Shown here in pieces: positions 1,946 to 12,256 of a stretch of DNA of 64,000 bases. Under the pieces are notes generated by a model that saw nothing but the letters and a program-made list of their open reading frames with translations, ran no database searches and was not told the origin of the DNA. Position numbers and translations under genes: made by a program. The DNA is taken from positions 4,160,001-4,224,000 of the forward strand of contig CBDETK010000013.1 of NCBI GenBank assembly GCA_965242865.1, in the 5' to 3' direction. Source of the DNA: Candidatus Latescibacterota bacterium. GTDB taxonomy: Bacteria > Latescibacterota > UBA2968 > UBA8231. Position 1 is the stretch's first letter. The number at the start of each line of letters is the position of its first letter.

Positions 1946-3331
1946 CTACTCCTGCGCGAAAGATTGGTGTGTGCAATGTCCCCCCACCGGCCTGAGTTGC
2001 CCCTTGCCGGTCACCGCATAGTTGCGGCCGTCGCGCTCGGGCACCACGTAGCGTTCGTACCACGCCTCCAGTCGCTGCTTCAGCTCGCCAATCCGCTCGG
2101 CTTGCTTGGGATCGCCCGCTAAATTGGTGCGCTCGCCCGGGTCGTTGGCGAGGTCGTAGAGTTCATGTGGTCCGTCTGGATAGCGGTGGACGTATTTCCA
2201 ATCCTCGGTACGCATCATCCGCGTCGCCCCGTACTCGTCGTAGATCACGACCTCCGCCTGACCGGGGTCGTCGGCTCCCAACAACAGCGGCAACACGCTC
2301 TGGCCGGGTAGGTCGAGCTGGGCTGGCAGCGGCAACGCTAGATAATCGAGCAAGGTCGGCATGAAATCGTAGGCACTGACCAGGCCCTTTTGGACGCCTC
2401 CCGCAGGGATGCGACCGGGGTGGCTGACGACGAAGGGCACCTTGATCGAGTTCTCATACATGTTCAGCGGATAGGTCCCATTGCCCTTGCCCCAGAACCC
2501 GTGGTGGCCGCAGCTAAAGCCGTTGTCGCTGGCAAAGACCACTAGCGTGTCCTCGCGCAGCCCCCTTTCCTCCAGCTTGTTGAGGATCCGCCCGATGTCG
2601 CGGTCCATTGCGGTCACCGCCGCGAAATAGCCCTTGAGCATCTCGCGGTTGCCCAAGCAGCCCTCGCTCAGCGATTGCCCCACCGCCCACGGGTGAATCT
2701 CCTCCTGCGGACAGGAGTCAAACGCGCAGTCGTCGTAGGAATCGACGATTTCTTGCGGGTGGCCGGTCCACGGACTGTGCGGCGCAGTGTAGTGGACGCC
2801 TAAGTAAAAGGGCGCGTCGCCGTCGGCCTGCCGGTCGATAAATGCCAGCGCGTCGTTGGTGATCGCCGTGGTGACGTAGCCGCGCTCGGTGATCCGCTCG
2901 CCGTTGCGGATCATGGGCGCGTCGTTGTATGGCCCGCCGCCCTGCTGATGCACGTACCAATGCGCGAAGCCGTGCTGTGCGAGTTGGCTGTGCCCTAAGT
3001 GCCACTTGCCGCTTAGGCCGCAGACCCAGCCGTTTGCCGCGAGGATGTCGGTATAAGCGACCTCGCCGGCGAGATAAGCGGCTGCATCTGCGCCGACGTT
3101 GCCCCCTCTGATCCAGTCGTGTACCCCGTGCTGCGAGGAGATCCGCCCGGTCAAAAAGGTCGCCCGGCTCGGCGAGCAGACCGGCGTTGCGACGAAAAAA
3201 TTGTCAAAGCGCGTGCCGGTCTGGGCGATGCGGTCGATGGCCGGCGTGCGGATTTCCGCGTTGCCATAGCAGCCAGCGGCCCAAGGGCCTTGGTCGTCGC
3301 TGAGGATGAAGACGATGTTGGGTTTATTCAC
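1946..3331 (-). CDS. Sulfatase (formylglycine-dependent S1 family)
   Basis: PNIVFILSDD, CSPSRATFLTG (CxPxR), GKWHLG, SDNG motifs. Confidence 0.93.
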   Translation of the reverse strand: MNKPNIVFILSDDQGPWAAGCYGNAEIRTPAIDRIAQTGTRFDNFFVATPVCSPSRATFLTGRISSQHGVHDWIRGGNVGADAAAYLAGEVAYTDILAANGWVCGLSGKWHLGHSQLAQHGFAHWYVHQQGGGPYNDAPMIRNGERITERGYVTTAITNDALAFIDRQADGDAPFYLGVHYTAPHSPWTGHPQEIVDSYDDCAFDSCPQEEIHPWAVGQSLSEGCLGNREMLKGYFAAVTAMDRDIGRILNKLEERGLREDTLVVFASDNGFSCGHHGFWGKGNGTYPLNMYENSIKVPFVVSHPGRIPAGGVQKGLVSAYDFMPTLLDYLALPLPAQLDLPGQSVLPLLLGADDPGQAEVVIYDEYGATRMMRTEDWKYVHRYPDGPHELYDLANDPGERTNLAGDPKQAERIGELKQRLEAWYERYVVPERDGRNYAVTGKGQLRPVGGHCTHQSFAQE

Positions 3332-3343
3332 AATGTATAGCCT

Positions 3344-3853
3344 TTAGTGCGAGTCCTGTCGCCAGCGACCGAGACGCTTGCGGGTTTCCGCCTTGGGCAA
3401 CCGGCAGCGTGGGTGAGTGCTGATTGCTTTAAGACCTGAGTATAGCTCATCGGTGCTTGCAGCGGAAACCTCAAACATCCGGTCTAGCAGCCACAAAACA
3501 CCGTGACAATCGACCTGCTCTTCGTTGGCCAACCTACGCAGCGGACCATCACCCGTGAGTAAGGTCCAAGTGTTTCTTGCCGCAAGGGCCAGAGCGAAGC
3601 TATCCGGTAGCGAGATCAACGGCTGCTTGCTCCGGTAGCCAAGGGCACAAGCGACGCCAGTGTTATCTAGTTCCTCGATCCGCAAGCCGAGCCTGAGCAG
3701 ATTATCGCCTCCGTGGTTTTTTAGTTCTCGTTCGTACAAAAGGTCCGGGACGGCAAACAGGAACGGGAGGCGAAAGCAGGTCTCTAGCAATGCCCCGCGC
3801 TCGAGATCAATCAGGATGGATGTGTCGGAGACCAGCACGTTCATAGGCTTCAT
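3344..3853 (-). CDS. PIN-domain ribonuclease (DUF3368-like putative toxin)
   Basis: VLVSDTSILIDL, SLPDSFALALA, LLTGDGPLRR acidic PIN motifs; overlaps the upstream XRE-ImmA gene. Confidence 0.85.
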   Translation of the reverse strand: MKPMNVLVSDTSILIDLERGALLETCFRLPFLFAVPDLLYERELKNHGGDNLLRLGLRIEELDNTGVACALGYRSKQPLISLPDSFALALAARNTWTLLTGDGPLRRLANEEQVDCHGVLWLLDRMFEVSAASTDELYSGLKAISTHPRCRLPKAETRKRLGRWRQDSH

Positions 3854-4922
3854 CGCACTCCAAGCCGGGCGGCTCCTCCATGCGCTGGTTCAACTTGTGG
3901 ACCGATGTTTCCAGCAGTTCGGCGGCCTTGGCCTCGGAGACCGCGCCCTCGGCCAAAGCGCGAAAGCACAGGCGCTCAAAGCGTTGGGGGACTTCGCCCT
4001 CCATGGCGTAAGGCTCTTTATAGGGCGGTTTGCGCCAGCCCAAACGGGAAAATTCGTTAAATAGTCGCCGGAACAAGGTTGGGCTGAAGATGCCGAGATC
4101 CTTGCAGCGATAGGTCAGTGCCTGAACGCTCACGCCGAATAGCTGCTTGAGGGCAAAAAGTTCACTCCATCCGATGGACGTGCGGTGCTTGCCGATTGCA
4201 GCCCACAGCACCTCGGCGGGCATGAGAAACGCCCCGGCGAAACGGTAGGCCGCCGTCTCGTTATCTACTTTTGCGCCGACCTCCAAGACCAGATGCCCCA
4301 ACTCATGCGCCATTGAGAGACGCTGTCGCTCTCCCCAGTGACCGCTGTTGACGACGAGGACGGGTACGGTGTCCTTGCCGACGCGGCGCACCCGCGCCAT
4401 AAGGCCGTCGATATTTCCAAGAGCACAAGAGAGCACCTTGATGCCTCGTTCTTCGAGTAGTTCGACTAGATTGGGAATAGGGTCGAGCCCTAAATCCCAG
4501 TGAAGGCGAAGACTATGGGCGGCGCGGTCGGCTTCTAAGGGATCGTTGACGACGGGATAGGAGGCTCCGCGCGGCTTGTCCCAGTCGAGGCTCGGCAAGC
4601 CGAGAAACTCCTCGACCATGAGGTAGCGTTCCAGTAAGTGCAGGACTTTAGCTTCGACCTGCATCTGCTCTCGTTTGCTCGTGAGACTTTGCTTGCGAAA
4701 CTCAACGCCCTCCAGCACCATTTCTTGGTCGCCGACCAAGTATTCTACGGGAACTGAGAGGGCGTCGGCTAGCGCAATGAGGACGCCCGAGCTTGGCATG
4801 GATTCGTCGCGCTCGTACTTGCCGATCGCCTGCGCCGTTACGCGATTTCCAATGCGTTCCTCCAAGGCGCGAAGGGACAGGCCAGCGGCAGAACGAGCGA
4901 GCTTGAGTCTCTGTCCGATCAT
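3807..4922 (-). CDS. XRE helix-turn-helix fused to ImmA/IrrE (M78) zinc metallopeptidase
   Basis: N-terminal GQRLKLARSAAGLSLRAL...AIGKYERDESMPS HTH; AHELGH (HExxH); AYRFAGAFLMP. Confidence 0.92.
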   Translation of the reverse strand: MIGQRLKLARSAAGLSLRALEERIGNRVTAQAIGKYERDESMPSSGVLIALADALSVPVEYLVGDQEMVLEGVEFRKQSLTSKREQMQVEAKVLHLLERYLMVEEFLGLPSLDWDKPRGASYPVVNDPLEADRAAHSLRLHWDLGLDPIPNLVELLEERGIKVLSCALGNIDGLMARVRRVGKDTVPVLVVNSGHWGERQRLSMAHELGHLVLEVGAKVDNETAAYRFAGAFLMPAEVLWAAIGKHRTSIGWSELFALKQLFGVSVQALTYRCKDLGIFSPTLFRRLFNEFSRLGWRKPPYKEPYAMEGEVPQRFERLCFRALAEGAVSEAKAAELLETSVHKLNQRMEEPPGLECDEAYERAGLRHIHPD

Positions 4923-4937
4923 GGATGGTATTCTCCC

Positions 4938-4980
4938 TTGACAGTTTACAAATAGAATATATATTTTTTACATTGTAAAC
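4938..4980. promoter_or_regulatory. Divergent promoter/operator region with inverted repeats
   Basis: TTGACA 4938-4943 and TATATT 4960-4965; GTTTACAA (4944-4951) / TTGTAAAC (4973-4980) inverted repeat; TTTACA-T-TGTAAA palindrome 4967-4979. Confidence 0.6.
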
Positions 4981-5223
4981 AGGATGGGGTTGAATTTTAT
5001 CATGCGACGCTACTGGATATGACGATGACCATCACAGCAGCATTCTCTAACAGGGAGAAAGGGAGGAAATCATGGAATAGAATTTCTGTATTCGCTCTGG
5101 CGGTGCCTAGCCGCTGACTTTTTTGCAATTTACAAAAATATCTATCACCTCACAATATATAAATTACGACCGTCGAGAATGGACGACGCTTCCTGCTCCG
5201 GCGGCACAAGCAAGGAGTCTTAA

Positions 5224-6480
5224 ATGAATTCTAGGACGATTCCACCTCACCTGACCGCACCGACAGATATTCTACTGGCTGACGTGGCGATCCGCGTCCA
5301 ACTCGGGCAGACGCGTTATCAGATGACCGTTGAGCGCTATCAGAAGATCAACAAACTGATTGAGCGCGATGGCAGCCCTCTCAAGGACCGCGTTGAGCTT
5401 TTCTACCCGCAGGGTTCTATGGCGATCGGCGCAACTATAGAGTCAAGGCTCAGGACGGATGAATTCGACATTGATGTGGTTGCACAGCTTGATCTGCCGG
5501 ACTGTGTACCACCACATGAGCCCTTGTACATGCTGTTCAAGGCGATCAGGGGCGAGCCGGGCTCCAAGTACTATAAAAAAACAAAACGAAGAACTCGTTG
5601 TGTCACTATCGGTTACGAAGACAAAATGCACATCGATGTCACGCCCGTTATTCGGCGAGGGGACACTCCAGAACGCGAGAGTTGGCTCTTTCATGACCGG
5701 CCAGAAGCACCTCAAGAGCCGAGCTACAGCCTTATCGCCAATCCCTACGGATTCGCGGAGTGGTTTAAGGCCAATACGCCGCCCGATCAAGATTTTGCAG
5801 ACATCTTTGAGAAGCGTGCGGCCGAATACGAGCGACTGGTGTTGATGGAGGCAGCGGAGAGTGAACCCGTTCCTCGCCAAGAACCGCCATTCCGAAAGTC
5901 GAAGGCGGTGATTGTGCTCCAGCTTCTGAAGCGTTGGCGCAACGTGCAATACGATGCGAGGTCTGGGCGACGACCACCGTCTATCCTAATTGCGAAGCTG
6001 GTGGCCGGTGCCGCCAATCATACGGACCGGCTGGCGGAGGAATTGCTGTTTCAGGCACGGCATATACTGCACGAGTTTCAGCGTTTCCACAACGCAAGGA
6101 GTCGCATTCGTGTCACCAATCCTGTTTGCGAACAGGATGTGCTGACTGATCGCTGGCCGGAATCGCTGCAAGACCAAGCGATCTTTATCAACGACCTTAA
6201 AAACCTTGTTACGAAGGTCGAGATGTTGGTCTCTGGGCGCGATCTTGGCGAGATGCAGAAAATCATGGTGGAGTTGTTCGGCGAAGCACCGACAGCCGAG
6301 GTCTTTCGGACCTTCAGCGAGCGTTCGGGCAAAGAGGTTCGCGATGGGCGAAGCCAGCATCGACCGGATACTGGCAGCAGGATCATTCCGGCAACAGCGG
6401 CGACAGGGGCGACCATCCCACCGGGGGCACTGGCAACGCCAAAACACACTTTCTTCGGCGGCGAGCGACCCGGACAGTGA
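5224..6480 (+). CDS. CBASS cyclic oligonucleotide synthase (CD-NTase, SMODS; probably CdnG-like)
   Basis: FYPQGSMAIG...DEFDIDVV, HIDVTP, ANPYGF, LLKRWRN, NPV motifs; C-terminal HTFFGG tail; AAGGAG RBS. Confidence 0.92.
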   Translation: MNSRTIPPHLTAPTDILLADVAIRVQLGQTRYQMTVERYQKINKLIERDGSPLKDRVELFYPQGSMAIGATIESRLRTDEFDIDVVAQLDLPDCVPPHEPLYMLFKAIRGEPGSKYYKKTKRRTRCVTIGYEDKMHIDVTPVIRRGDTPERESWLFHDRPEAPQEPSYSLIANPYGFAEWFKANTPPDQDFADIFEKRAAEYERLVLMEAAESEPVPRQEPPFRKSKAVIVLQLLKRWRNVQYDARSGRRPPSILIAKLVAGAANHTDRLAEELLFQARHILHEFQRFHNARSRIRVTNPVCEQDVLTDRWPESLQDQAIFINDLKNLVTKVEMLVSGRDLGEMQKIMVELFGEAPTAEVFRTFSERSGKEVRDGRSQHRPDTGSRIIPATAATGATIPPGALATPKHTFFGGERPGQ

Positions 6481-6917
6481 GTCTGACGATTAGTAAACAG
6501 GTTGAACTCATGCGGCAAAGGTGGCCAGATTTCCAAGTGATCAATCGGACGGGTCGCTTGGTGCGATGGGAGGGACGGCTTCGACCCCTGAGCCAGATGT
6601 ACACGGTTCAGGTCGCTTTCTACCGGGAATGCAAAAAAGGCAGTGCCGAACATCCACCGGACGTAACGGTGATTGACCCGCCTCTGCGCCGACGAACTGA
6701 AAAGCCGGAAGAGCCCATCCCACATCACTACCAGAACCGGAATTGTCCTGAACGGCCCTTGCTATGTCTCTATGACCCGGCCACTCAGGAATGGCATCCC
6801 CGGAAACCAATCGCCCATACCATCATCCCTTGGACGATTGACTGGCTGGTTTGCTATGAGGGTTGGCTTGCAACAGGCGAATGGATGGGCGGCGGTCGGC
6901 ATCCAACAAGCGAGTAG
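6477..6917 (+). CDS. CBASS stand-alone E2-like (ubiquitin-conjugating fold) protein
   Basis: IPHHY...LCLYDP...EW...IIPW..DWL..YE.WLATGEW.GGG pattern; GTGA overlap with the CD-NTase stop. Confidence 0.85.
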   Translation: MSLTISKQVELMRQRWPDFQVINRTGRLVRWEGRLRPLSQMYTVQVAFYRECKKGSAEHPPDVTVIDPPLRRRTEKPEEPIPHHYQNRNCPERPLLCLYDPATQEWHPRKPIAHTIIPWTIDWLVCYEGWLATGEWMGGGRHPTSE

Positions 6918-6925
6918 ATGCCGCA

Positions 6926-7993
6926 ATGTTTGATAGCGATGAGGGAGTACCTCCAAAACGATCATCAGGTACGCTTAAGCATCGCCGCGTTCAACTTCCT
7001 TGGCCAGAAGATCGGAAATTTCGCATTCTTGCGATTGATGGGGGTGGCATTCGTGGAATCTTCCCAGCCACATTCCTAGCGGGACTGGAGGAACGCTATC
7101 TCGGAGGGGGGTCTGTAGCCCAATACTTTGACCTCATCGCGGGAACCTCAACCGGGGGTATTATTGCCCTTGGGCTCGCTTCGGGACTTACAGCCGCCGA
7201 ACTGCGCGATCTCTACATTGAGCGTGGGGGTGATATATTTCCCCCTATTCGCAGCGATGTTATTGGGTCCGCAAAACGCTGCTTTTGGGGCTTCTACCAG
7301 TATTTCAAGTTTCGCTACGACCGGAAGGCACTCATGTGCATTCTGCACGAGACCTTCGGCAACCGGAAATTTGGTGAGGCTCAGACGCGGCTGTGCATCC
7401 CTTCCTTCGATGGCCTGTACGGAGAGGTGTACATCTTCAAGACCCCGCATCATCCCGATTTTCGCAGGGACGCCAAGGAGCAAATGACAAAGATAGCGGC
7501 GGCTACGTCAGCCGCGCCGACGTTTTTTCGACCGCTTCAAGATGGCGGCTATACTTTCATTGATGGGGGAGTCTGGGCAAACAATCCTATCATGATCGCT
7601 TTAGTCGATGCCTTGTCCTGCTTCTCTGTCCCACGGGAGCGCATTCGCATTCTGAGCCTAGGCTGTGGGGATGACCAGTATGATGTTGGTAAAACGAAGA
7701 CGCTGCTAGGGGGTATGTTGGCATGGAAGGACATCATATATGGTGCGATGCGGCTTCAGTCTCTCAACGCGCTTGGTCAGGCCGGACTGCTGATAGGTGC
7801 GGACAGGATTATCAGAGTCAACGCGCCTACGTGTAAAAAGAAAATCCGACTGGATGACTGGAGCCGTGCTGTGGCGGAGCTACCCAATGCAGCAAAAGCA
7901 GCCCTTGACGAGTTCGGCGAAAACGCGGCGGCCGTATTTCTAATGGAACCCGCTGCCCCTTACCGGCCAATTGTCGCCGAGTCCTGCTTATAG
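6926..7993 (+). CDS. CBASS patatin-like phospholipase effector (CapV-like)
   Basis: DGGGIRG, GTSTG (catalytic Ser), SAAPTFF, DGGVWANNP; third gene of the operon; start taken as ATG 6926. Confidence 0.9.
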   Translation: MFDSDEGVPPKRSSGTLKHRRVQLPWPEDRKFRILAIDGGGIRGIFPATFLAGLEERYLGGGSVAQYFDLIAGTSTGGIIALGLASGLTAAELRDLYIERGGDIFPPIRSDVIGSAKRCFWGFYQYFKFRYDRKALMCILHETFGNRKFGEAQTRLCIPSFDGLYGEVYIFKTPHHPDFRRDAKEQMTKIAAATSAAPTFFRPLQDGGYTFIDGGVWANNPIMIALVDALSCFSVPRERIRILSLGCGDDQYDVGKTKTLLGGMLAWKDIIYGAMRLQSLNALGQAGLLIGADRIIRVNAPTCKKKIRLDDWSRAVAELPNAAKAALDEFGENAAAVFLMEPAAPYRPIVAESCL

Positions 7994-8099
7994 AGGTATA
8001 GGGGTATTGTCGGTCGCGCCGGGTATTCCAAGGTCAGGATCAGGATAAGGGCTAGGAGACTTTAGGGAGTATATACATACTATTCCCATGAATTTTGGA

Positions 8100-11000
8100 T
8101 TACGCCAATAGTTGCTTTACCAACGTCTCTATCTGCTCGCCTTCGCCCGATTGGGCGAGCCACCGACGCAATTCGCGGCGGACAATGGTCGTGCTGACCG
8201 CTGCGCCGCGCTCTTGGCGTAGTACTTTCAACTGCTGCGCCGCACCGCTTGCCGCCGCTTGGCCGGCGGTCGCAATGTTCTGATGCAAACAGTTCGTTGT
8301 ATCGTATTCTGGTATCGACAATTTCCACAGGTGCTTTTGCAAATGGCGTGCTCCGAATTGTCCCTTGGCCATCAACGGTTTCGCCGTTTCATACAGGGCG
8401 CGACTATTGATGATGGCGAGTACGTAATGGGCCTCTTGAAGGTCCTTGCAAGGTGCCCAGAATAACGTGTAGTCAATTATAGCATCATGGGTATCTATAA
8501 TCGCCGCCGTAGGTCGTCCTGAAGAGGTGTACACCAAGCGAATGGGAACGTCCTTGTCATTCTTTCGCCATTCGAGTTGCGCCGAGAGTTCGCGGTGGTA
8601 GTCCAACCGATTCATCAGGTTCTTTTTGTCGTTAGCCCCCTTATGCTGTTCCCATAGCGTACTGACTTTCTGCCACCGTCCCCGCATCCGCTGTTCCAAC
8701 CCACCGAGATGAATGCCTCCCGTTCCATTCGCATCCACAGGCAGTTCAGGGTCGTTTCGTTTTAAGGGCAAAAGAGCTTTTAGCGGCGTCAATGTCGCGT
8801 AGGGAACGACCGTCTCTCCCAAGTGAACGTCAAACAAGTGCGTTTTCTCTATCGTCTGCCCGGTGATGGCAGTCAGATAGAGAGCCTTCCACGGTGCTTT
8901 GTCATTGCTGCCTCGGCGAGGATCCACCGTAATGGTCTGCGCGGCGCGAACAAGGGTGGTGCTCTCGACCTCATGTACAAAGAAAAGACAGCGCGGCACG
9001 ATGGAAGCTCCCTGCCGAAAGCGGTCCGCATAAGGCGATGTTCCGCTGACCGACGTGTCGGTAATAGCGATTTGCTCCCGCCGCACATCCTTTGCTCCGG
9101 CCGCCCCTTGCCATTGCTCTACCTCAGCGGTCAAGGGCGTCGCATTTATGTTACCCACACCCATCCGCTCGGCAAATGCGACACAAGACGCGACCGGAAA
9201 AAACGTGTTGGGTTCAAGTTTTTCCAGATCCCACGCCGGTTTGTAGCCGAAATTCACCGCCAAATCGCCCCATTGTCCCGTGCGCCACTTGGCGTACTGC
9301 CCAGTTTGCAATGCGCTGTGCGGCAGCACCATGGCGATGACGCCGCCATCTCTCAGGTAGAGAGCGACGCTACGGGTAAAGAAAAGCCCGGCGACATCTT
9401 GATGCGTTGCGTAGCGACCTCCCTGCCAGATGTGATATAGATCCTTGCTCTGCTGTACTAGCTTGTCGCGCAACACGCTAGCGGTATTGCTATAGTTCAG
9501 CCACGGCGGGTTGCCGACAATCACATCGACCCTGCGGCGGCTCAACGCCACCGGACGAACCAAATTGCGCGTATAGTACGCCCAGATGTGGTTGCGCCCT
9601 TCGGCGTGTAAATCCTGCATGATTGCGATGGTCGCCGCCAGCGTCTGCCGCTGGGCCGGGTCTGTAATCCCATGATCGTCCAGTGCCACTAGCGGGTCAT
9701 GACCGCGCTCAATCGCATCGGCAATGTCGCTCATCAGCAAATCAAACGTGTCGGCTTGTTCCACCAAATCGATTGGAAAAATCAGCTTTTTGTCGAACTC
9801 GTCGCCCTCTACCTCGATGCCTATATCGCCGCTGATAAACAAGTCGCCAGTTTGGTAGTGCAACTGCAAGGCGTCCCCTAAATACACAGGTATCGCTACG
9901 TTTCCCACATACCCGGCCTCGGCCACAGCATCAATGAGGGGCCGTGCAGCCATGATCCAAGCCGTGCGAGCGAGCCGCACCGCCACCGGATGCACGTCAA
10001 TACCCATCACCGCCTCGCGCAGCCGCTTCACCGCCTCTTTGGGATCCATCTGCGCGGCTGTGGCCGCTTCGACAAAGTGGCGCACCGCCACGGCGATAAA
10101 CGTGCCAGAGCCACAAGACGGGTCGAGAACCCGCTGGCCGAGCGGGTCTGTCACCACCTCCTGCACCATCGCCTGCGCCAGCCATTCCGGGGTATAATAC
10201 TCGCCCAAGCGTCGTCGTTCATCCGGCGGAATGACCGCTTCGTACAAGGTCGCGGCGATGTCGGCCGGTGCTTCCTTCCACTTAAAGCGAGCCACGTGCC
10301 GAGCCATCGTCTCAATGAGGGGCTGCCCACCCACTTCGGCCGGCCACGCAAAGAAATCGGACTCAATAATGTCTTGCAGGCCGGTGGCGTCGCGGAATTG
10401 CCGCCCGTAGAGCAAATCCGTCGGATCATTAGCGGCTCGTTGCCGAATATCCATGCCAAAGTATGCCTGCACCACCATGCCGACGACCATGCTCAGGTAC
10501 GTGTGCCGGACAAACAGATCGTCTAGCGGGTTGTCCGTCTGGGCGATCTCGCCCAACGCCGCTTGCAACAAGGTTTCCCACAGACGGCACTTGACGCGGA
10601 CGGTTTCGCGGTCCTTCGTCTTTTGGTACAGCGCGTTCAGGACATCAATATCCCGCTGATAGGACGGACTGTTGGGGCCAAAATGCTGCTCGACATTGGT
10701 AGCGCAGGCCGGAATGTCACTCAGCGCGACTAGGGCCTCGTCGCGCAGCCACTCGTATAAAGGCAGCCAGTCAGCCGCCGAATCGAGTGTAAAAGCATAG
10801 GGCTTTGTCGTCTTGACCTCGCCGGCATTCGGCCAGCGCAGGAGCCAGTACCGTCCGTCCGTGAGAATACCCATCCGCGCCCCCTGCCCGTGCGCCATGG
10901 ATTCCACCAAGTATTCATCCAACTGCCGCACATAGTTTTCATTGGGGTTAAAGCTGTCGGTCGTGCCGATGCGCTTTTTGACCTCGATAAAGGTGTCTAA

Positions 11001-11204
11001 TGCCGTCAAATCCACACGCGAAACCGAGCGGTCCGACGGCGACACTTCCTCGGCGATCTCATCTGGGGCAACCAAGCGCGTAGAGAGCAAAAAGTCGCGC
11101 ACCGCACTAGTGATATTGGCCTCGGATTCATTGTTGCCGCGCCGTTGCAGAATTGCCGCGGCCGCAGTCTGGTATTTTGGATCGTTGTAATCTATTTGAG
11201 GCAT
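8100..11204 (-). CDS. Type IIG/Eco57I-like fused restriction endonuclease and N6-adenine methyltransferase
   Basis: N-terminal RVD...FIEVKK nuclease-like motif; GEYYTP, VLDPSCGSGTF, GNPPW; long C-terminal target-recognition region. Confidence 0.85.
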   Translation of the reverse strand: MPQIDYNDPKYQTAAAAILQRRGNNESEANITSAVRDFLLSTRLVAPDEIAEEVSPSDRSVSRVDLTALDTFIEVKKRIGTTDSFNPNENYVRQLDEYLVESMAHGQGARMGILTDGRYWLLRWPNAGEVKTTKPYAFTLDSAADWLPLYEWLRDEALVALSDIPACATNVEQHFGPNSPSYQRDIDVLNALYQKTKDRETVRVKCRLWETLLQAALGEIAQTDNPLDDLFVRHTYLSMVVGMVVQAYFGMDIRQRAANDPTDLLYGRQFRDATGLQDIIESDFFAWPAEVGGQPLIETMARHVARFKWKEAPADIAATLYEAVIPPDERRRLGEYYTPEWLAQAMVQEVVTDPLGQRVLDPSCGSGTFIAVAVRHFVEAATAAQMDPKEAVKRLREAVMGIDVHPVAVRLARTAWIMAARPLIDAVAEAGYVGNVAIPVYLGDALQLHYQTGDLFISGDIGIEVEGDEFDKKLIFPIDLVEQADTFDLLMSDIADAIERGHDPLVALDDHGITDPAQRQTLAATIAIMQDLHAEGRNHIWAYYTRNLVRPVALSRRRVDVIVGNPPWLNYSNTASVLRDKLVQQSKDLYHIWQGGRYATHQDVAGLFFTRSVALYLRDGGVIAMVLPHSALQTGQYAKWRTGQWGDLAVNFGYKPAWDLEKLEPNTFFPVASCVAFAERMGVGNINATPLTAEVEQWQGAAGAKDVRREQIAITDTSVSGTSPYADRFRQGASIVPRCLFFVHEVESTTLVRAAQTITVDPRRGSNDKAPWKALYLTAITGQTIEKTHLFDVHLGETVVPYATLTPLKALLPLKRNDPELPVDANGTGGIHLGGLEQRMRGRWQKVSTLWEQHKGANDKKNLMNRLDYHRELSAQLEWRKNDKDVPIRLVYTSSGRPTAAIIDTHDAIIDYTLFWAPCKDLQEAHYVLAIINSRALYETAKPLMAKGQFGARHLQKHLWKLSIPEYDTTNCLHQNIATAGQAAASGAAQQLKVLRQERGAAVSTTIVRRELRRWLAQSGEGEQIETLVKQLLA

Positions 11205-11485
11205 AGTAATTCCTTGACTTTAAGCAGTCGCCGCAGGGAGTGCATCAGGGACTCGTCGCGGGTCTGTGGTCACGGTAGACTCCTCGTTTGGGACGGGCTG
11301 GGCGAGCGGGGAGAAAGGTAGGAAAATTTGACACCAGAGAGAACTTTGCCCATTTCCTAAAAGTACCGACGGCAACGGCTAGCTTTCCAAGGATTGAGGG
11401 CGGGACGCCTTCGATCCCGGGGATAGCAGATAAAGCAGGGGTCGTGTGCCTAAAGGTTCATCTCTAAAAATGGAAGGAGCAGCAA

Positions 11486-12256
11486 ATGAAGTACAGCGAC
11501 GAACACCACGCCCACTTTGAGGAGCACGGGTACGTGCGGCTCGGCAAGGTCCTCGACGACGCGGGACTGGCCGAACTCCAGCAGCGCATCGACGCGATCA
11601 TGCTCGGGGAGATTCTATACCCGGACATGGACTTTCAGCTCGACGGGGAGGACGCCGACTACGCGAAGATGCCCACCGTCTCCCCCGGCCACAAAGGGGC
11701 GACGCTTCAGTACCGCAAGATCATGGGCCTAGAGCAGGATTCGGTCCATCTCGCGTACATGCAGCACCCGCTTTTCCGCCAGATCACCCAGCGTTATATC
11801 GGCGAGGACGTGTCGATTTTCCGGGCGATGTTTATGAACAAGCCGGCGGAAAAGGGCACGATACTGCCTTGGCACCAAGATGTGGGTGTGGGCTGGGGCG
11901 TGGGGTACAATCCGACGATCACGGTGTGGACCGCGCTCGATCCGGCGATGGTCGCAAACGGCTGTATGCAGGTGGTGCCCGGCAGCCACAAGCGCGGCGT
12001 GATCACCGAAAGGCACTTTCCCTCGGATGAACAACTCGCCGAATGCGCACCGCCGGGAGCGGAAGTCGATCTCGAAGCCGAGGCCGGCGAGGCGATTTTG
12101 CTCAACAATCTGCTGCTGCACCGCTCGGGAACCAACCCGACGGGTCAGTCGCGCCGCGCCTTTAGCATCGCCTATATGGACGGCTCCGTGCGTTCCGTGC
12201 GCACGGGCGAGGGGTATCCGATGATTTTCGGTGCAGAGGCGCTGGTTCCGGGCTAG
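11486..12256 (+). CDS. Phytanoyl-CoA dioxygenase (PhyH) family Fe/2OG enzyme
   Basis: PWHQD, VWTALD, NGCMQVVPGSH, HRSG.N...RRA. Confidence 0.9.
   Translation: MKYSDEHHAHFEEHGYVRLGKVLDDAGLAELQQRIDAIMLGEILYPDMDFQLDGEDADYAKMPTVSPGHKGATLQYRKIMGLEQDSVHLAYMQHPLFRQITQRYIGEDVSIFRAMFMNKPAEKGTILPWHQDVGVGWGVGYNPTITVWTALDPAMVANGCMQVVPGSHKRGVITERHFPSDEQLAECAPPGAEVDLEAEAGEAILLNNLLLHRSGTNPTGQSRRAFSIAYMDGSVRSVRTGEGYPMIFGAEALVPG

Follow-up and report, generated by a model that had tools for sequence, protein, structure and literature searches.

In a 64,000-nucleotide stretch of contig CBDETK010000013.1 from a Candidatus Latescibacterota bacterium (the window, to which all coordinates without a locus or genome handle refer), we identified a small defence island that comprises a type II-short operon of CBASS (the system of antiphage signalling based on cyclic oligonucleotides), a divergently encoded two-gene module and a type IIG restriction-modification (RM) enzyme. 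The module consists of a fused Xre-type helix-turn-helix (HTH)/M78 zinc peptidase, hereafter the regulator, and a PIN-domain nuclease. Based on a wholly computational analysis, we favour, with a probability of about 60%, the reading that the module is a portable repressor/antitoxin switch that also gates CBASS, in which one cleavage event would have two outputs. Judged from its sequence, the fused HTH-M78 protein probably represses both CBASS and its own operon; dual repression is suggested because one predicted operator (O1) covers the regulator promoter and a second (O2) covers the CBASS-proximal promoter. The first-pass annotation of this DNA had proposed that a single fused regulator controls CBASS within a five-gene, two-armed defence system. 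Control by the fused protein is supported by the positions of O1 and O2, and the idea of a fixed five-gene unit had to be given up: at the same genomic site, close relatives keep the pair without CBASS, and elsewhere it joins many other cargos.

Predicted operators in the divergent gap

A one-genome-per-species scan for relatives of the regulator recovered 69 loci (39-93% identity) from about 10 phyla. Upstream of the regulator gene nearly all of these share a dyad, AGTTKACAA-N20/21-TTGTMAACT, the right arm of which ends ~20 nt before the start codon and the left arm of which includes a -35-like hexamer of the regulator promoter. We describe this operator as a 10-bp inverted repeat split by 20-21 bp. 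Using a leave-one-out position weight matrix (PWM, score >12 bits), the dyad was located 45-83 nt upstream of the gene in 63 of the 69 loci, and it was present in eight of eight plasmid loci outside the PWM set (20.8-30.8 bits). There are almost no other PWM matches over 1.32 Mb of related loci, where only two further secondary dyads were seen. The two arms co-vary (T/A in 30 cases, G/C in 26, mixed in 6), and the arm variant is tracked by residue 34 of the recognition helix. Among 59 rows, Gly occurs with T/A in 34 and Ser with G/C in 23, the exceptions being one Lys with T/A and one Ser with G/A. The corresponding recognition helices read AQAIGKYE (with T/A) and AQAISKYE (with G/C).

Scored with a PWM built without the window and its four closest relatives, O1 is the top dyad of the 64-kb window (32.2 bits) and O2 the second (24.6 bits); the next independent match reaches 7.5 bits. 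The right-hand arm of O1, in gene orientation, stops 19 nt short of the regulator ATG, and the exact O1 core pattern has a single occurrence in the 6.0-Mb genome. From the end of O2 to the CD-NTase ATG there are 58 nt. None of 5000 dinucleotide shuffles of 4985-5223, which represent the local base composition, attained the score of O2. This second dyad is kept in the related loci L001, L002 and L038 (L numbers denote surveyed loci), and also in L004 despite the deletion of CBASS there. The block with the promoter-like site inside O2 (Table 1) is conserved in the four closest relatives. Other clades have a single dyad, but the gap to the cargo, as we call the genes on the other side of the operator, is short. 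The regulator gene and the start codon of the cargo are separated by 61-127 bp in all in 12 of the 22 loci that bear cargo; because O1 occupies -61 to -21, the cargo promoter must overlap O1. We found no published description of the operator, of its duplicate at the CBASS promoter or of the recognition-helix covariation in a literature search that left supplementary tables outside its scope.

The gap has further features. A promoter-like sequence, TTGACA-16-TATATT at 4938-4965 (11 of 12 matches), overlaps O1 and points to CBASS, and a terminator-like hairpin with a T-run is present at 5098-5116, ~130 nt beyond it. The interval 4938-5120 could be a short leader or an attenuated transcript. A conserved terminator was rejected, as neither the hairpin nor the T-run persists in L038, L001, L002 or L004. 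Also rejected were a structured RNA or riboswitch (Rfam, searched with 3000-12000, gave no match at E up to 1) and three small spacer open reading frames (ORFs) of 12, 20 and 2 codons, noted by eye, as genes: their frame is broken by an 8-nt indel in relatives.

The fused regulator

The regulator is one 371-aa chain with Pfam matches to HTH_3 (7e-12) and Peptidase_M78 (6e-18), in agreement with its first description as a single-polypeptide HTH-HExxH peptidase. The HExxH motif and a downstream Glu, the signature of IrrE/ImmA-type zinc peptidases, are retained. H206, E207, H210 and E222, together with R76, are invariant in 29 regulator sequences, and F75 is retained in at least 90% of them. In the AlphaFold model (pLDDT 84), the best fold matches of the peptidase part are IrrE (3dti) and CapP (7t5t), with 168-177 aligned columns. 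The HTH part matches the N-terminal domain of CapH (7t5u; TM 0.86, normalised by target), ImmR and P22 c2. The C-terminal ~90 residues form helices only (281-364 in the model), and for this reason we assign no GAF domain to the protein. Also lacking is a cysteine-switch loop, since none of the 29 sequences has a Cys between H210 and E222, which is the segment between HExxH and the third zinc ligand.

All 14 RmrA models of PADLOC match the regulator (best 3.8e-54, residues 4-346); matches to capP (7e-13) and capH (1e-4) are both far weaker. Relatives of the regulator behave similarly, with matches to RmrA in 29 of 29, to capP in 29 of 29 and to capH in 27 of 29. The best solved relative of the regulator-family profile is 9vzy_A, which is VapB52 (E 1.2e-7, in the peptidase region only). 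In the profile alignment the cysteine-switch loop appears as an insertion in VapB52 relative to the regulator family. When the regulator model was used in Foldseek (structure library to April 2026), 9vzy was not among the matches. By homology to VapBC52, it is plausible that the regulator is a self-cleaving repressor/antitoxin that would free the PIN nuclease.

The PIN protein and its predicted complex with the regulator

The claim that a PIN gene overlaps that of the regulator holds up, with a VapC-type fold in the structural model and four conserved acids. In sequence searches the Pfam PIN match is weak and below the cut-off (E 0.0017), the single sequence gave nothing against solved structures at E up to 10, and the profile gave one weak VapC match in the PDB (E 0.074). 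Homologues carry the precomputed assignment PF11848 (DUF3368). Where sequence alone is weak, the model (pLDDT 95) confirms that the 169-aa protein has a PIN fold, its best solved matches in Foldseek being VapC-type PIN proteins (E ~2e-4, probability 1.0). In the acidic set D-E-D-D, D10 and E43 are invariant and D84 and D102 occur in at least 90% of 31 sequences. Five of these 31 PIN relatives match the PADLOC candidate family PDC-S70. A PIN match is found directly downstream of the regulator in 59 of the 69 loci and is uninterrupted over at least 140 residues in 36; some of the breaks may be sequencing errors, because many of the assemblies are long-read metagenome-assembled genomes.

The predicted regulator-PIN complex scored 0.81 and the best of three controls 0.59. 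The mark used was reached by 58 of 80 solved complexes and by 2 of 110 mismatched pairs, counts that hold only roughly because own alignments were used. At least 94% of contacts are shared between the runs, and partner pLDDT is at least 88. In the predicted interface, regulator residues 41-49 and 59-63 (HTH), 102-106 and 328-349 (C-terminal helices) would face the surroundings of D10, E43, D84 and D102 of the PIN protein.

Runs labelled sponge metagenome also contain the stretch, and run X5 has the intact form. A 15-kb contig of run X7 (~99% identity to the window) shows two differences. Positions 3335-3867 are replaced by three letters; the PIN gene is gone and the regulator is identical to residue 352, with the loss in the regulator restricted to the disordered tail. 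In addition, a frameshifting deletion removes 371 nt from the CD-NTase gene (5360-5730), which runs into a stop after 57 codons, a difference seen in this one contig only. The PIN gene can be lost with the regulator retained, as a toxin-antitoxin (TA) pair allows.

These observations bear on whether the PIN protein acts as a toxin at all. It could instead act as a structural co-repressor or as an RNase of regulatory function, by which the repressor is tuned or CBASS mRNA trimmed, comparable to FitAB/VapBC toxin dimers that bridge antitoxins. The predicted interface seats the PIN protein on the HTH domain, beside and not on the recognition helix. The centres of the operator half-sites are separated by ~31 bp, so that a wide oligomer would be needed, and the stoichiometry of the VapB52:VapC52 complex is 1:2 (PMC13273310; here and below, published work is cited from the available part of each source). 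The X7 contig and the 10 of 69 loci without a PIN match, in which the PIN gene is lost and the regulator kept, are also in line with a purely regulatory role, but a TA pair likewise permits loss of the toxin with the antitoxin kept. Moreover, conservation of the four catalytic acids points to selection for nuclease activity, and the homologous VapBC52 is an experimentally toxic tRNase with abortive-infection defence. We therefore regard the purely regulatory alternative as quite improbable and retain the reading of the PIN protein as a toxin held by the regulator.

Relation to known systems

The pair resembles CapH/CapP in that an Xre-type HTH and an IrrE-type HExxH peptidase are encoded upstream of, and divergent from, an immune operon, and in a similar range of cargos (CBASS types I-III and Bub-like operons). 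CapP cleaves CapH on single-stranded DNA (ssDNA), and CBASS is induced as a result (Lau et al., 2022, 10.1101/2022.04.27.489752); ssDNA-stimulated cleavage of CapH by CapP and CBASS induction are also described in 10.64898/2026.05.16.725639. Fifteen CBASS systems with an apparent CapH-CapP fusion, as well as a DISARM locus with a vapC-like gene and a CapH-CapP fusion, are reported in the available text of 10.1101/2022.04.27.489752, and CapH and CapP accompany 168 of 544 Bub operons (Chambers et al., PMC11601596). Novelty can thus no longer be claimed for a fused regulator beside CBASS, given the fusions already in Lau et al. (2022). The module differs from CapH/CapP in being one polypeptide with the HTH first, whereas CapP cuts a separate CapH in trans. 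It further differs in the PIN gene that lies downstream in 59 of 69 loci, in PADLOC scores for RmrA far above those for capP, and in its persistence free of cargo. We did not find a published operator for CapH-CapP fusions in the literature, supplementary tables not being covered.

VapB52 of M. tuberculosis is an HTH-IrrE-peptidase antitoxin with ssDNA-triggered self-cleavage (NAR 2026, PMC13273310). Its N-terminal domain is needed to bind the PIN tRNase VapC52, which cleaves tRNA and provides abortive-infection defence, and it has a conserved FR motif, F75/R76, at the domain junction (PMC13273310). Like VapBC52 (Rv2515c/Rv2514c, 9vzy), the pair described here combines an HTH, an IrrE-type peptidase and a helical C-terminal part with a PIN gene downstream. 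Phe-Arg occurs at 75-76 in both families (equated by position, not by alignment), and the N-terminal domain, the main toxin-binding surface in the crystal structure of VapB52, is predicted to have this role here too. The relation is remote, however, and the two PIN proteins lack detectable sequence kinship, that of the window being of the COG2405/DUF3368 kind. No linked immune operon or operator is described in the available part of PMC13273310, whereas here the module adjoins CBASS with predicted shared operators.

A third comparison is with RosmerTA (RmrA/RmrT), an anti-phage TA system (Millman et al., 2022, 10.1101/2022.05.11.491447; Ernits et al., 2023, PMC10440598). It too has an ImmA-type zinc-peptidase antitoxin, often with an N-terminal HTH, and a variable toxin, and its RmrA models match the regulator; ImmA-type antitoxins have also been associated with PIN-like domains (PMC10440598). 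The toxin here differs, as it is a PIN protein that matches no PADLOC RmrT model, and RosmerTA is described in the available text as a stand-alone pair, not as a regulator of a neighbouring operon. The closest correspondence is to predicted Xre-COG2856-PIN three-component systems (Makarova et al., 2009, PMC2701414; Matelska et al., 2017, PMC5499597), which include exactly the same pair, an HTH-DUF955/COG2856 fusion upstream of a COG2405 (DUF3368) PIN. Protease-controlled TA or a wider regulatory circuit was proposed in both papers. Those are purely genomic predictions, and in their available parts there is no operator, CBASS link or cargo analysis.

The suggestion in the first-pass annotation that nothing alike had been characterised was therefore mistaken, the pair being a long-predicted TA type (PMC2701414, PMC5499597) that matches PADLOC RmrA. 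The pair as a predicted TA type, CapH-CapP fusions next to CBASS, and a biochemically characterised HTH-peptidase antitoxin that cleaves itself and is paired with a PIN toxin are all already in print, as far as the available parts of these sources go, and the locus is less novel than first thought. A conserved TA/regulator cassette with exchangeable immune cargo was not found in the literature, again with supplementary tables not covered.

Distribution, cargo and linkage of the pair

Database relatives of the regulator at E <1e-10 number more than 4000, and the top 120 are 71-95% identical. By record titles, the 69 loci are from Latescibacterota, Gemmatimonadota, Nitrospirota, Binatia, Thermodesulfobacteriota, Acidobacteriota, Chloroflexota, Spirochaetota and Alpha-, Beta- and Gammaproteobacteria. 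Because gene calls are noisy in high-GC loci, they were used only to choose ORFs for family scans. CBASS is head-to-head with the pair, in the order of the window, in 12 of the 69 loci, a number to be read with neighbour annotation covering part of the loci and closely related loci not being independent observations. Also adjoining the pair are ubiquitin-like (Ubl) operons, in the E2-E1-JAB fusion form in L016, L019 and L031 and in the multiubiquitin/E2/JAB-E1 form in L009, L059 and L060; L053 has a weak (27%) E2-E1-JAB match ~2.3 kb from the pair. Cargos found in a single case each are SIR2 (L015), ZacA/DUF6361 (L050), a Tle1-like lipase (L012) and Lipase_3 (L046). Elsewhere the neighbours are housekeeping genes, including those for UxuA, an ABC transporter, GlmU/GlmS, dienelactone hydrolase and an MFS transporter. 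In L032, L034 and L066 (Thermodesulfobacteriota) the pair is directly downstream of glmU-glmS, which we take to be a classic Tn7-type insertion site.

Some cargos are remnants. Only a 51-aa CD-NTase stump is left in L004, and nine further loci have N-terminal stumps only of the first Ubl-operon gene. The cargo seems to be deleted from the far end, with the promoter-proximal piece and the pair surviving. The stumps are located just upstream of the regulator (CD-NTase in L004; Ubl in L017, L020, L022, L024, L025, L033, L035, L063 and L068), and the regulator gene itself is in pieces in L063 and L068. A similar stump was seen by eye in L029.

A DUF1156 protein of ~970 aa, encoded co-directionally downstream, may be another kind of cargo (L007, 11128-14043; L045, 12406-15258; L049, 12606-15500). 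It has a weak match to D12-class DNA methyltransferases (from the family scan of L007; L045 and L049 by tblastn at 66-68% identity). The gene directly follows that of the regulator in L007, which has no PIN match, and lies ~1-1.5 kb further, past the PIN gene, in L045 and L049.

Twelve changes of the CBASS label are required on a tree of 62 regulators, at least six of them forced by well-supported branches; about two dozen loci without an annotated neighbour were scored 'none', and the share with cargo may be understated. The other seven of the 69 loci are outside the tree, with ORFs that are broken, truncated or have an internal stop. A reverse search of 168 genomes of the phylum gave 15 loci with a close CD-NTase (at least 64% identity), of which 11 have the regulator head-to-head; in one, the cyclase is joined to another HTH-M78 protein. 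No such regulator accompanies the six distant CD-NTases of the phylum.

Homologues were identified on 95 plasmid records. We examined eight annotated plasmids. Two of these carry NTase+SLATT operons, two carry HORMA/AAA-type CBASS and a third is alike without an annotated cyclase; the rest have one multiubiquitin-E2-ThiF operon and two lone modules between insertion sequence (IS) elements. On a Gloeocapsopsis dulcis plasmid (L104), tandem dyads of 28.2 and 21.0 bits precede the regulator gene at 4832-4913, and IS6 and IS110 transposase genes flank the pair.

The plasmid records raise the question of whether the module is the immunity region of a mobile element, that is, an ImmR/ImmA-like repressor-antirepressor pair for excision or transfer of a prophage or integrative and conjugative element, with CBASS carried along. 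The HTH domains of ImmR and of phage repressors rank among the best matches by fold and by sequence, 31 of the 95 plasmid records are typed conjugative and 27 mobilizable, and weak homologues (26-30% identity) occur in five phage records. We consider this explanation highly improbable: the surroundings of the island yielded neither an integrase nor phage or transfer genes, a tRNA or flanking repeats, and in the annotated loci what lies divergent to the pair is either an immune operon or nothing; genes for excision or transfer were never seen there.

Overall, the pair is strongly and repeatedly linked to several kinds of immune operon in constant orientation, yet can stand alone. The first-pass annotation had named a lack of enrichment beside CBASS as evidence that would speak against its proposal; the survey returned the opposite, a strong enrichment of homologous pairs beside immune operons, CBASS among them (12 of 69 loci, 11 of 15 close CD-NTase loci, and the plasmids).

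The lone pairs bring up a different explanation, in which module and cargo are independent neighbours: a RosmerTA/VapBC52-type TA module with autoregulation only would have come to lie beside CBASS through defence-island clustering. This would account for pairs alone by housekeeping genes (L003, L005, L006, L032, L034, L066, L011 and L058) and between IS elements on two plasmids. It would also fit the intact pairs beside cargo remnants (L004 and the nine Ubl-fragment loci), where the pair outlives its neighbour, a paralogous pair in the same genome without an intact immune neighbour, and a top PADLOC match that is RmrA and not capP. It does not predict that O2 coincides with the CBASS promoter-like site, nor the constant head-to-head placement of the pair relative to the first gene of the cargo, which holds in at least four unrelated kinds of cargo. 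The gaps of 61-127 bp are too short for an operator-free cargo promoter, and the pair is present at 11 of 15 close CD-NTase loci. On this evidence we judge independent neighbours to be unlikely and prefer a switch that gates CBASS.

Several observations nevertheless count against the switch. At the same sulfatase...PhyH site, L003, L005 and L006 have the pair without CBASS beside housekeeping genes; L032, L034 and L066 follow glmUS without divergent cargo; and in three of the 15 loci with a close CD-NTase (L082-L084) a regulator of this kind is missing within 1.5 kb. The right arm of O2 is weak (9.2 bits), and O2 is seen only in the clade of the window, in which recent descent has preserved the entire gap. 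The covariation of Gly/Ser34 with T/G may rest on one or two evolutionary switches; because the tree suggests this number, it is a consistent signature and not statistical proof. Unlike CapP, which has a C-terminal GAF domain, the regulator is without one, and unlike CapP and VapB52 it is without a cysteine-switch loop (the loop is found in 33% of CapP). A search of the PDB with the PIN profile at E up to 1 did not find VapC52, and in PADLOC the window's PIN protein matches no family and RmrT models match none of its 31 relatives. Finally, the complex passed by the smallest allowed margin (+0.22, where 0.20 was required, with one control at 0.59), and likeness to 9vzy may underlie this pass because a solved relative now exists.

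Paralogous pair and a fused cyclase

A second HTH-M78/PIN pair is encoded in the same genome (G000:C13:195260-196348; 46% identical); in L074 the paralogous pair is at 9255-10349 (-) and 8765-9274 (-). Its neighbours are a SpoU methylase, LptD, an ORF resembling a type I RM S subunit and MutS. The paralogous pair has no matching dyad, and we therefore predict no cross-talk with the operators of the window. A short co-directional ORF upstream of the paralogue resembles, by eye, an N-terminal stump of a SIR2-type protein.

In a genome of the same genus as the window (G130), at L095 1486-4002 (+), identical with L097 4892-7408 (+), an 838-aa open frame consists of a CD-NTase fused in frame to Xre-HTH and Peptidase_M78 domains. 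The CD-NTase part is 72% and the HTH-M78 part 27% identical to the proteins of the window. The fusion is followed by a 182-aa ORF without a family match and then by an AAA_14/DUF4143 ATPase; there is no E2 or patatin. This architecture was found in one database cluster only (833 aa, 6 members). It may have arisen by recombination or be an infrequent instance of direct cyclase-peptidase coupling. The 182-aa ORF of L097 was considered as a PIN relative and rejected, as it has no similarity to the PIN protein of the window.

The CBASS operon and the layout of the island

The five genes lie where they were first placed, and the 301-bp divergent gap between the regulator and CD-NTase genes (4923-5223) and the 47 nt shared by the regulator and PIN ORFs agree with the ORF list (Table 1). 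The PIN gene is the second gene of the regulator operon. Six genes are found within the low-GC island, between the sulfatase and PhyH-family genes.

Table 1. Features of the defence island and its divergent gap, as positions in the window
Feature	Position	Strand	Description
O1	4942-4982		CAGTTTACAA-N21-TTGTAAACAG; predicted operator over the regulator's own promoter
O2	5126-5166		CAATTTACAA-N21-ATATAAATTA; predicted operator on the CBASS-proximal promoter-like site
CBASS promoter-like site TTTACA-16-CACAAT	5129-5156	+	Inside O2; 9/12 consensus matches
O1-O2 spacer	4985-5125	+	Conserved among closest relatives only
PIN-domain nuclease gene	3344-3853	-	169 aa; COG2405/DUF3368-like, VapC-type fold in the model; predicted toxin/second effector
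Fused XRE-HTH/M78 (IrrE/ImmA-type) zinc peptidase	3807-4922	-	371 aa; predicted repressor and antitoxin
CD-NTase (CBASS oligonucleotide cyclase)	5224-6480	+	418 aa
E2-only Cap2-like protein	6477-6917	+	146 aa
Patatin-like phospholipase effector (CapV-like)	6863-7993	+	Likelier start ATG 6926
Type IIG restriction-modification enzyme	8100-11204	-	1034 aa; convergent to the CBASS operon
Low-GC island	~3300-11500		GC 0.50-0.58 inside, 0.62-0.66 outside
Flank: sulfatase gene	1946-3331	-	
Flank: PhyH-family gene	11486-12256	+	

The CD-NTase, E2 and patatin genes reported on the plus strand are all backed by family scans. The CD-NTase matches Pfam SMODS (2e-10) and a DncV-like NTFase family and the PADLOC cyclase model PDLC00800 (3e-146), and its translation shows GS...DxD...D motifs by eye. 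The E2 protein matches PADLOC E2 PDLC00877 (3.8e-49); the Pfam scan gave no match for it. The patatin matches Pfam Patatin (2e-24), a PADLOC phospholipase effector (1e-112) and NCBIfam CBASS_lipase (246 bits, cut-off 200), with GTSTG and DGG motifs seen by eye; its likelier ATG, read from the translation, is 9 nt past the E2 stop. The three genes overlap or abut, and the next gene is that of the convergent RM enzyme. Pfam and PADLOC scans identified no E1 or JAB gene in the operon. Since E2 is present without E1 or JAB, the operon is, by its gene content, a type II short CBASS consisting of CD-NTase, E2-only protein and effector. The term is used for E2-only CBASS in PMC11153139, and the window's operon is like the systems described there in having a CD-NTase, an E2-only Cap2-like protein and an effector (here a patatin lipase); nothing unusual was noticed in the CBASS genes themselves.

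The type IIG RM enzyme matches PADLOC REase_MTase_IIG (1e-62) and Pfam N6_Mtase, Eco57I and MmeI_Mtase. It accompanies the CBASS block in L001, L038 and L087 and is absent from that of L002. It is a neighbour in the island and at most a candidate member of the regulated unit. Around the island we identified no integrase, phage or transfer gene and no tRNA gene, and there are no convincing flanking direct repeats of the kind expected as integration scars.

Proposed mechanism and significance

In the mechanism we propose, the regulator would bind the long-spaced inverted repeat AGTTKACAA-N20/21-TTGTMAACT as an oligomer and, in the uninfected cell, silence both its own operon and CBASS. It would also neutralise the co-transcribed PIN nuclease, chiefly via the N-terminal HTH domain. 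Following the example of CapP/CapH and VapB52, a damage signal, probably ssDNA, would switch on the peptidase, which may then cut its own chain at the conserved F75-R76, at the HTH/peptidase junction. This single cut would have two outputs: the HTH domain would leave the oligomer, by which CBASS and the module would be de-repressed, and the PIN nuclease would be set free. Sensing of the signal is the least secure step, because the regulator is without a GAF domain and a cysteine switch. We infer DNA binding, the signal, self-cleavage, the toxicity and RNA target of the PIN protein, and the effects on CBASS expression and phage defence.

A broader version of this mechanism is offered tentatively, as possible. 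The pair would be a portable, self-stabilising sensor-switch cassette, in which damage-triggered self-cleavage frees the PIN nuclease and de-represses whichever immune operon is docked at the bidirectional operator, with cargo exchanged at that point. If so, the cargos of the cassette would be CBASS of types I, II-short and III, Bub operons, SIR2 and lipases, and the frequent cargo stumps would be explained because a TA pair would outlive its cargo.

If module and CBASS are not coupled, the region amounts to a TA pair of known type next to a CBASS of known type in an ordinary defence island. How suicidal immune operons stay silent until needed is an active question, and the locus suggests that one fused protein may join two things so far studied separately, VapBC52/RosmerTA-type TA and CapH/CapP-type gating of CBASS. 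The cassette is unusually conserved and mobile, and it offers testable pieces: the operator, Gly/Ser34 as a predictor of the T/G variant, O2, the candidate cleavage site F75-R76 and the predicted toxin-binding surface. Because cultured strains with annotated plasmids carry the cassette, among them Neotabrizicola shimadae, Methylobacterium radiotolerans and Rhizobium gallicum, the question is experimentally approachable. If the cassette reading is true, a modular 'two-armed' immune architecture would be widespread, in at least ten phyla at 60-90% protein identity, and the window would be one instance of it.

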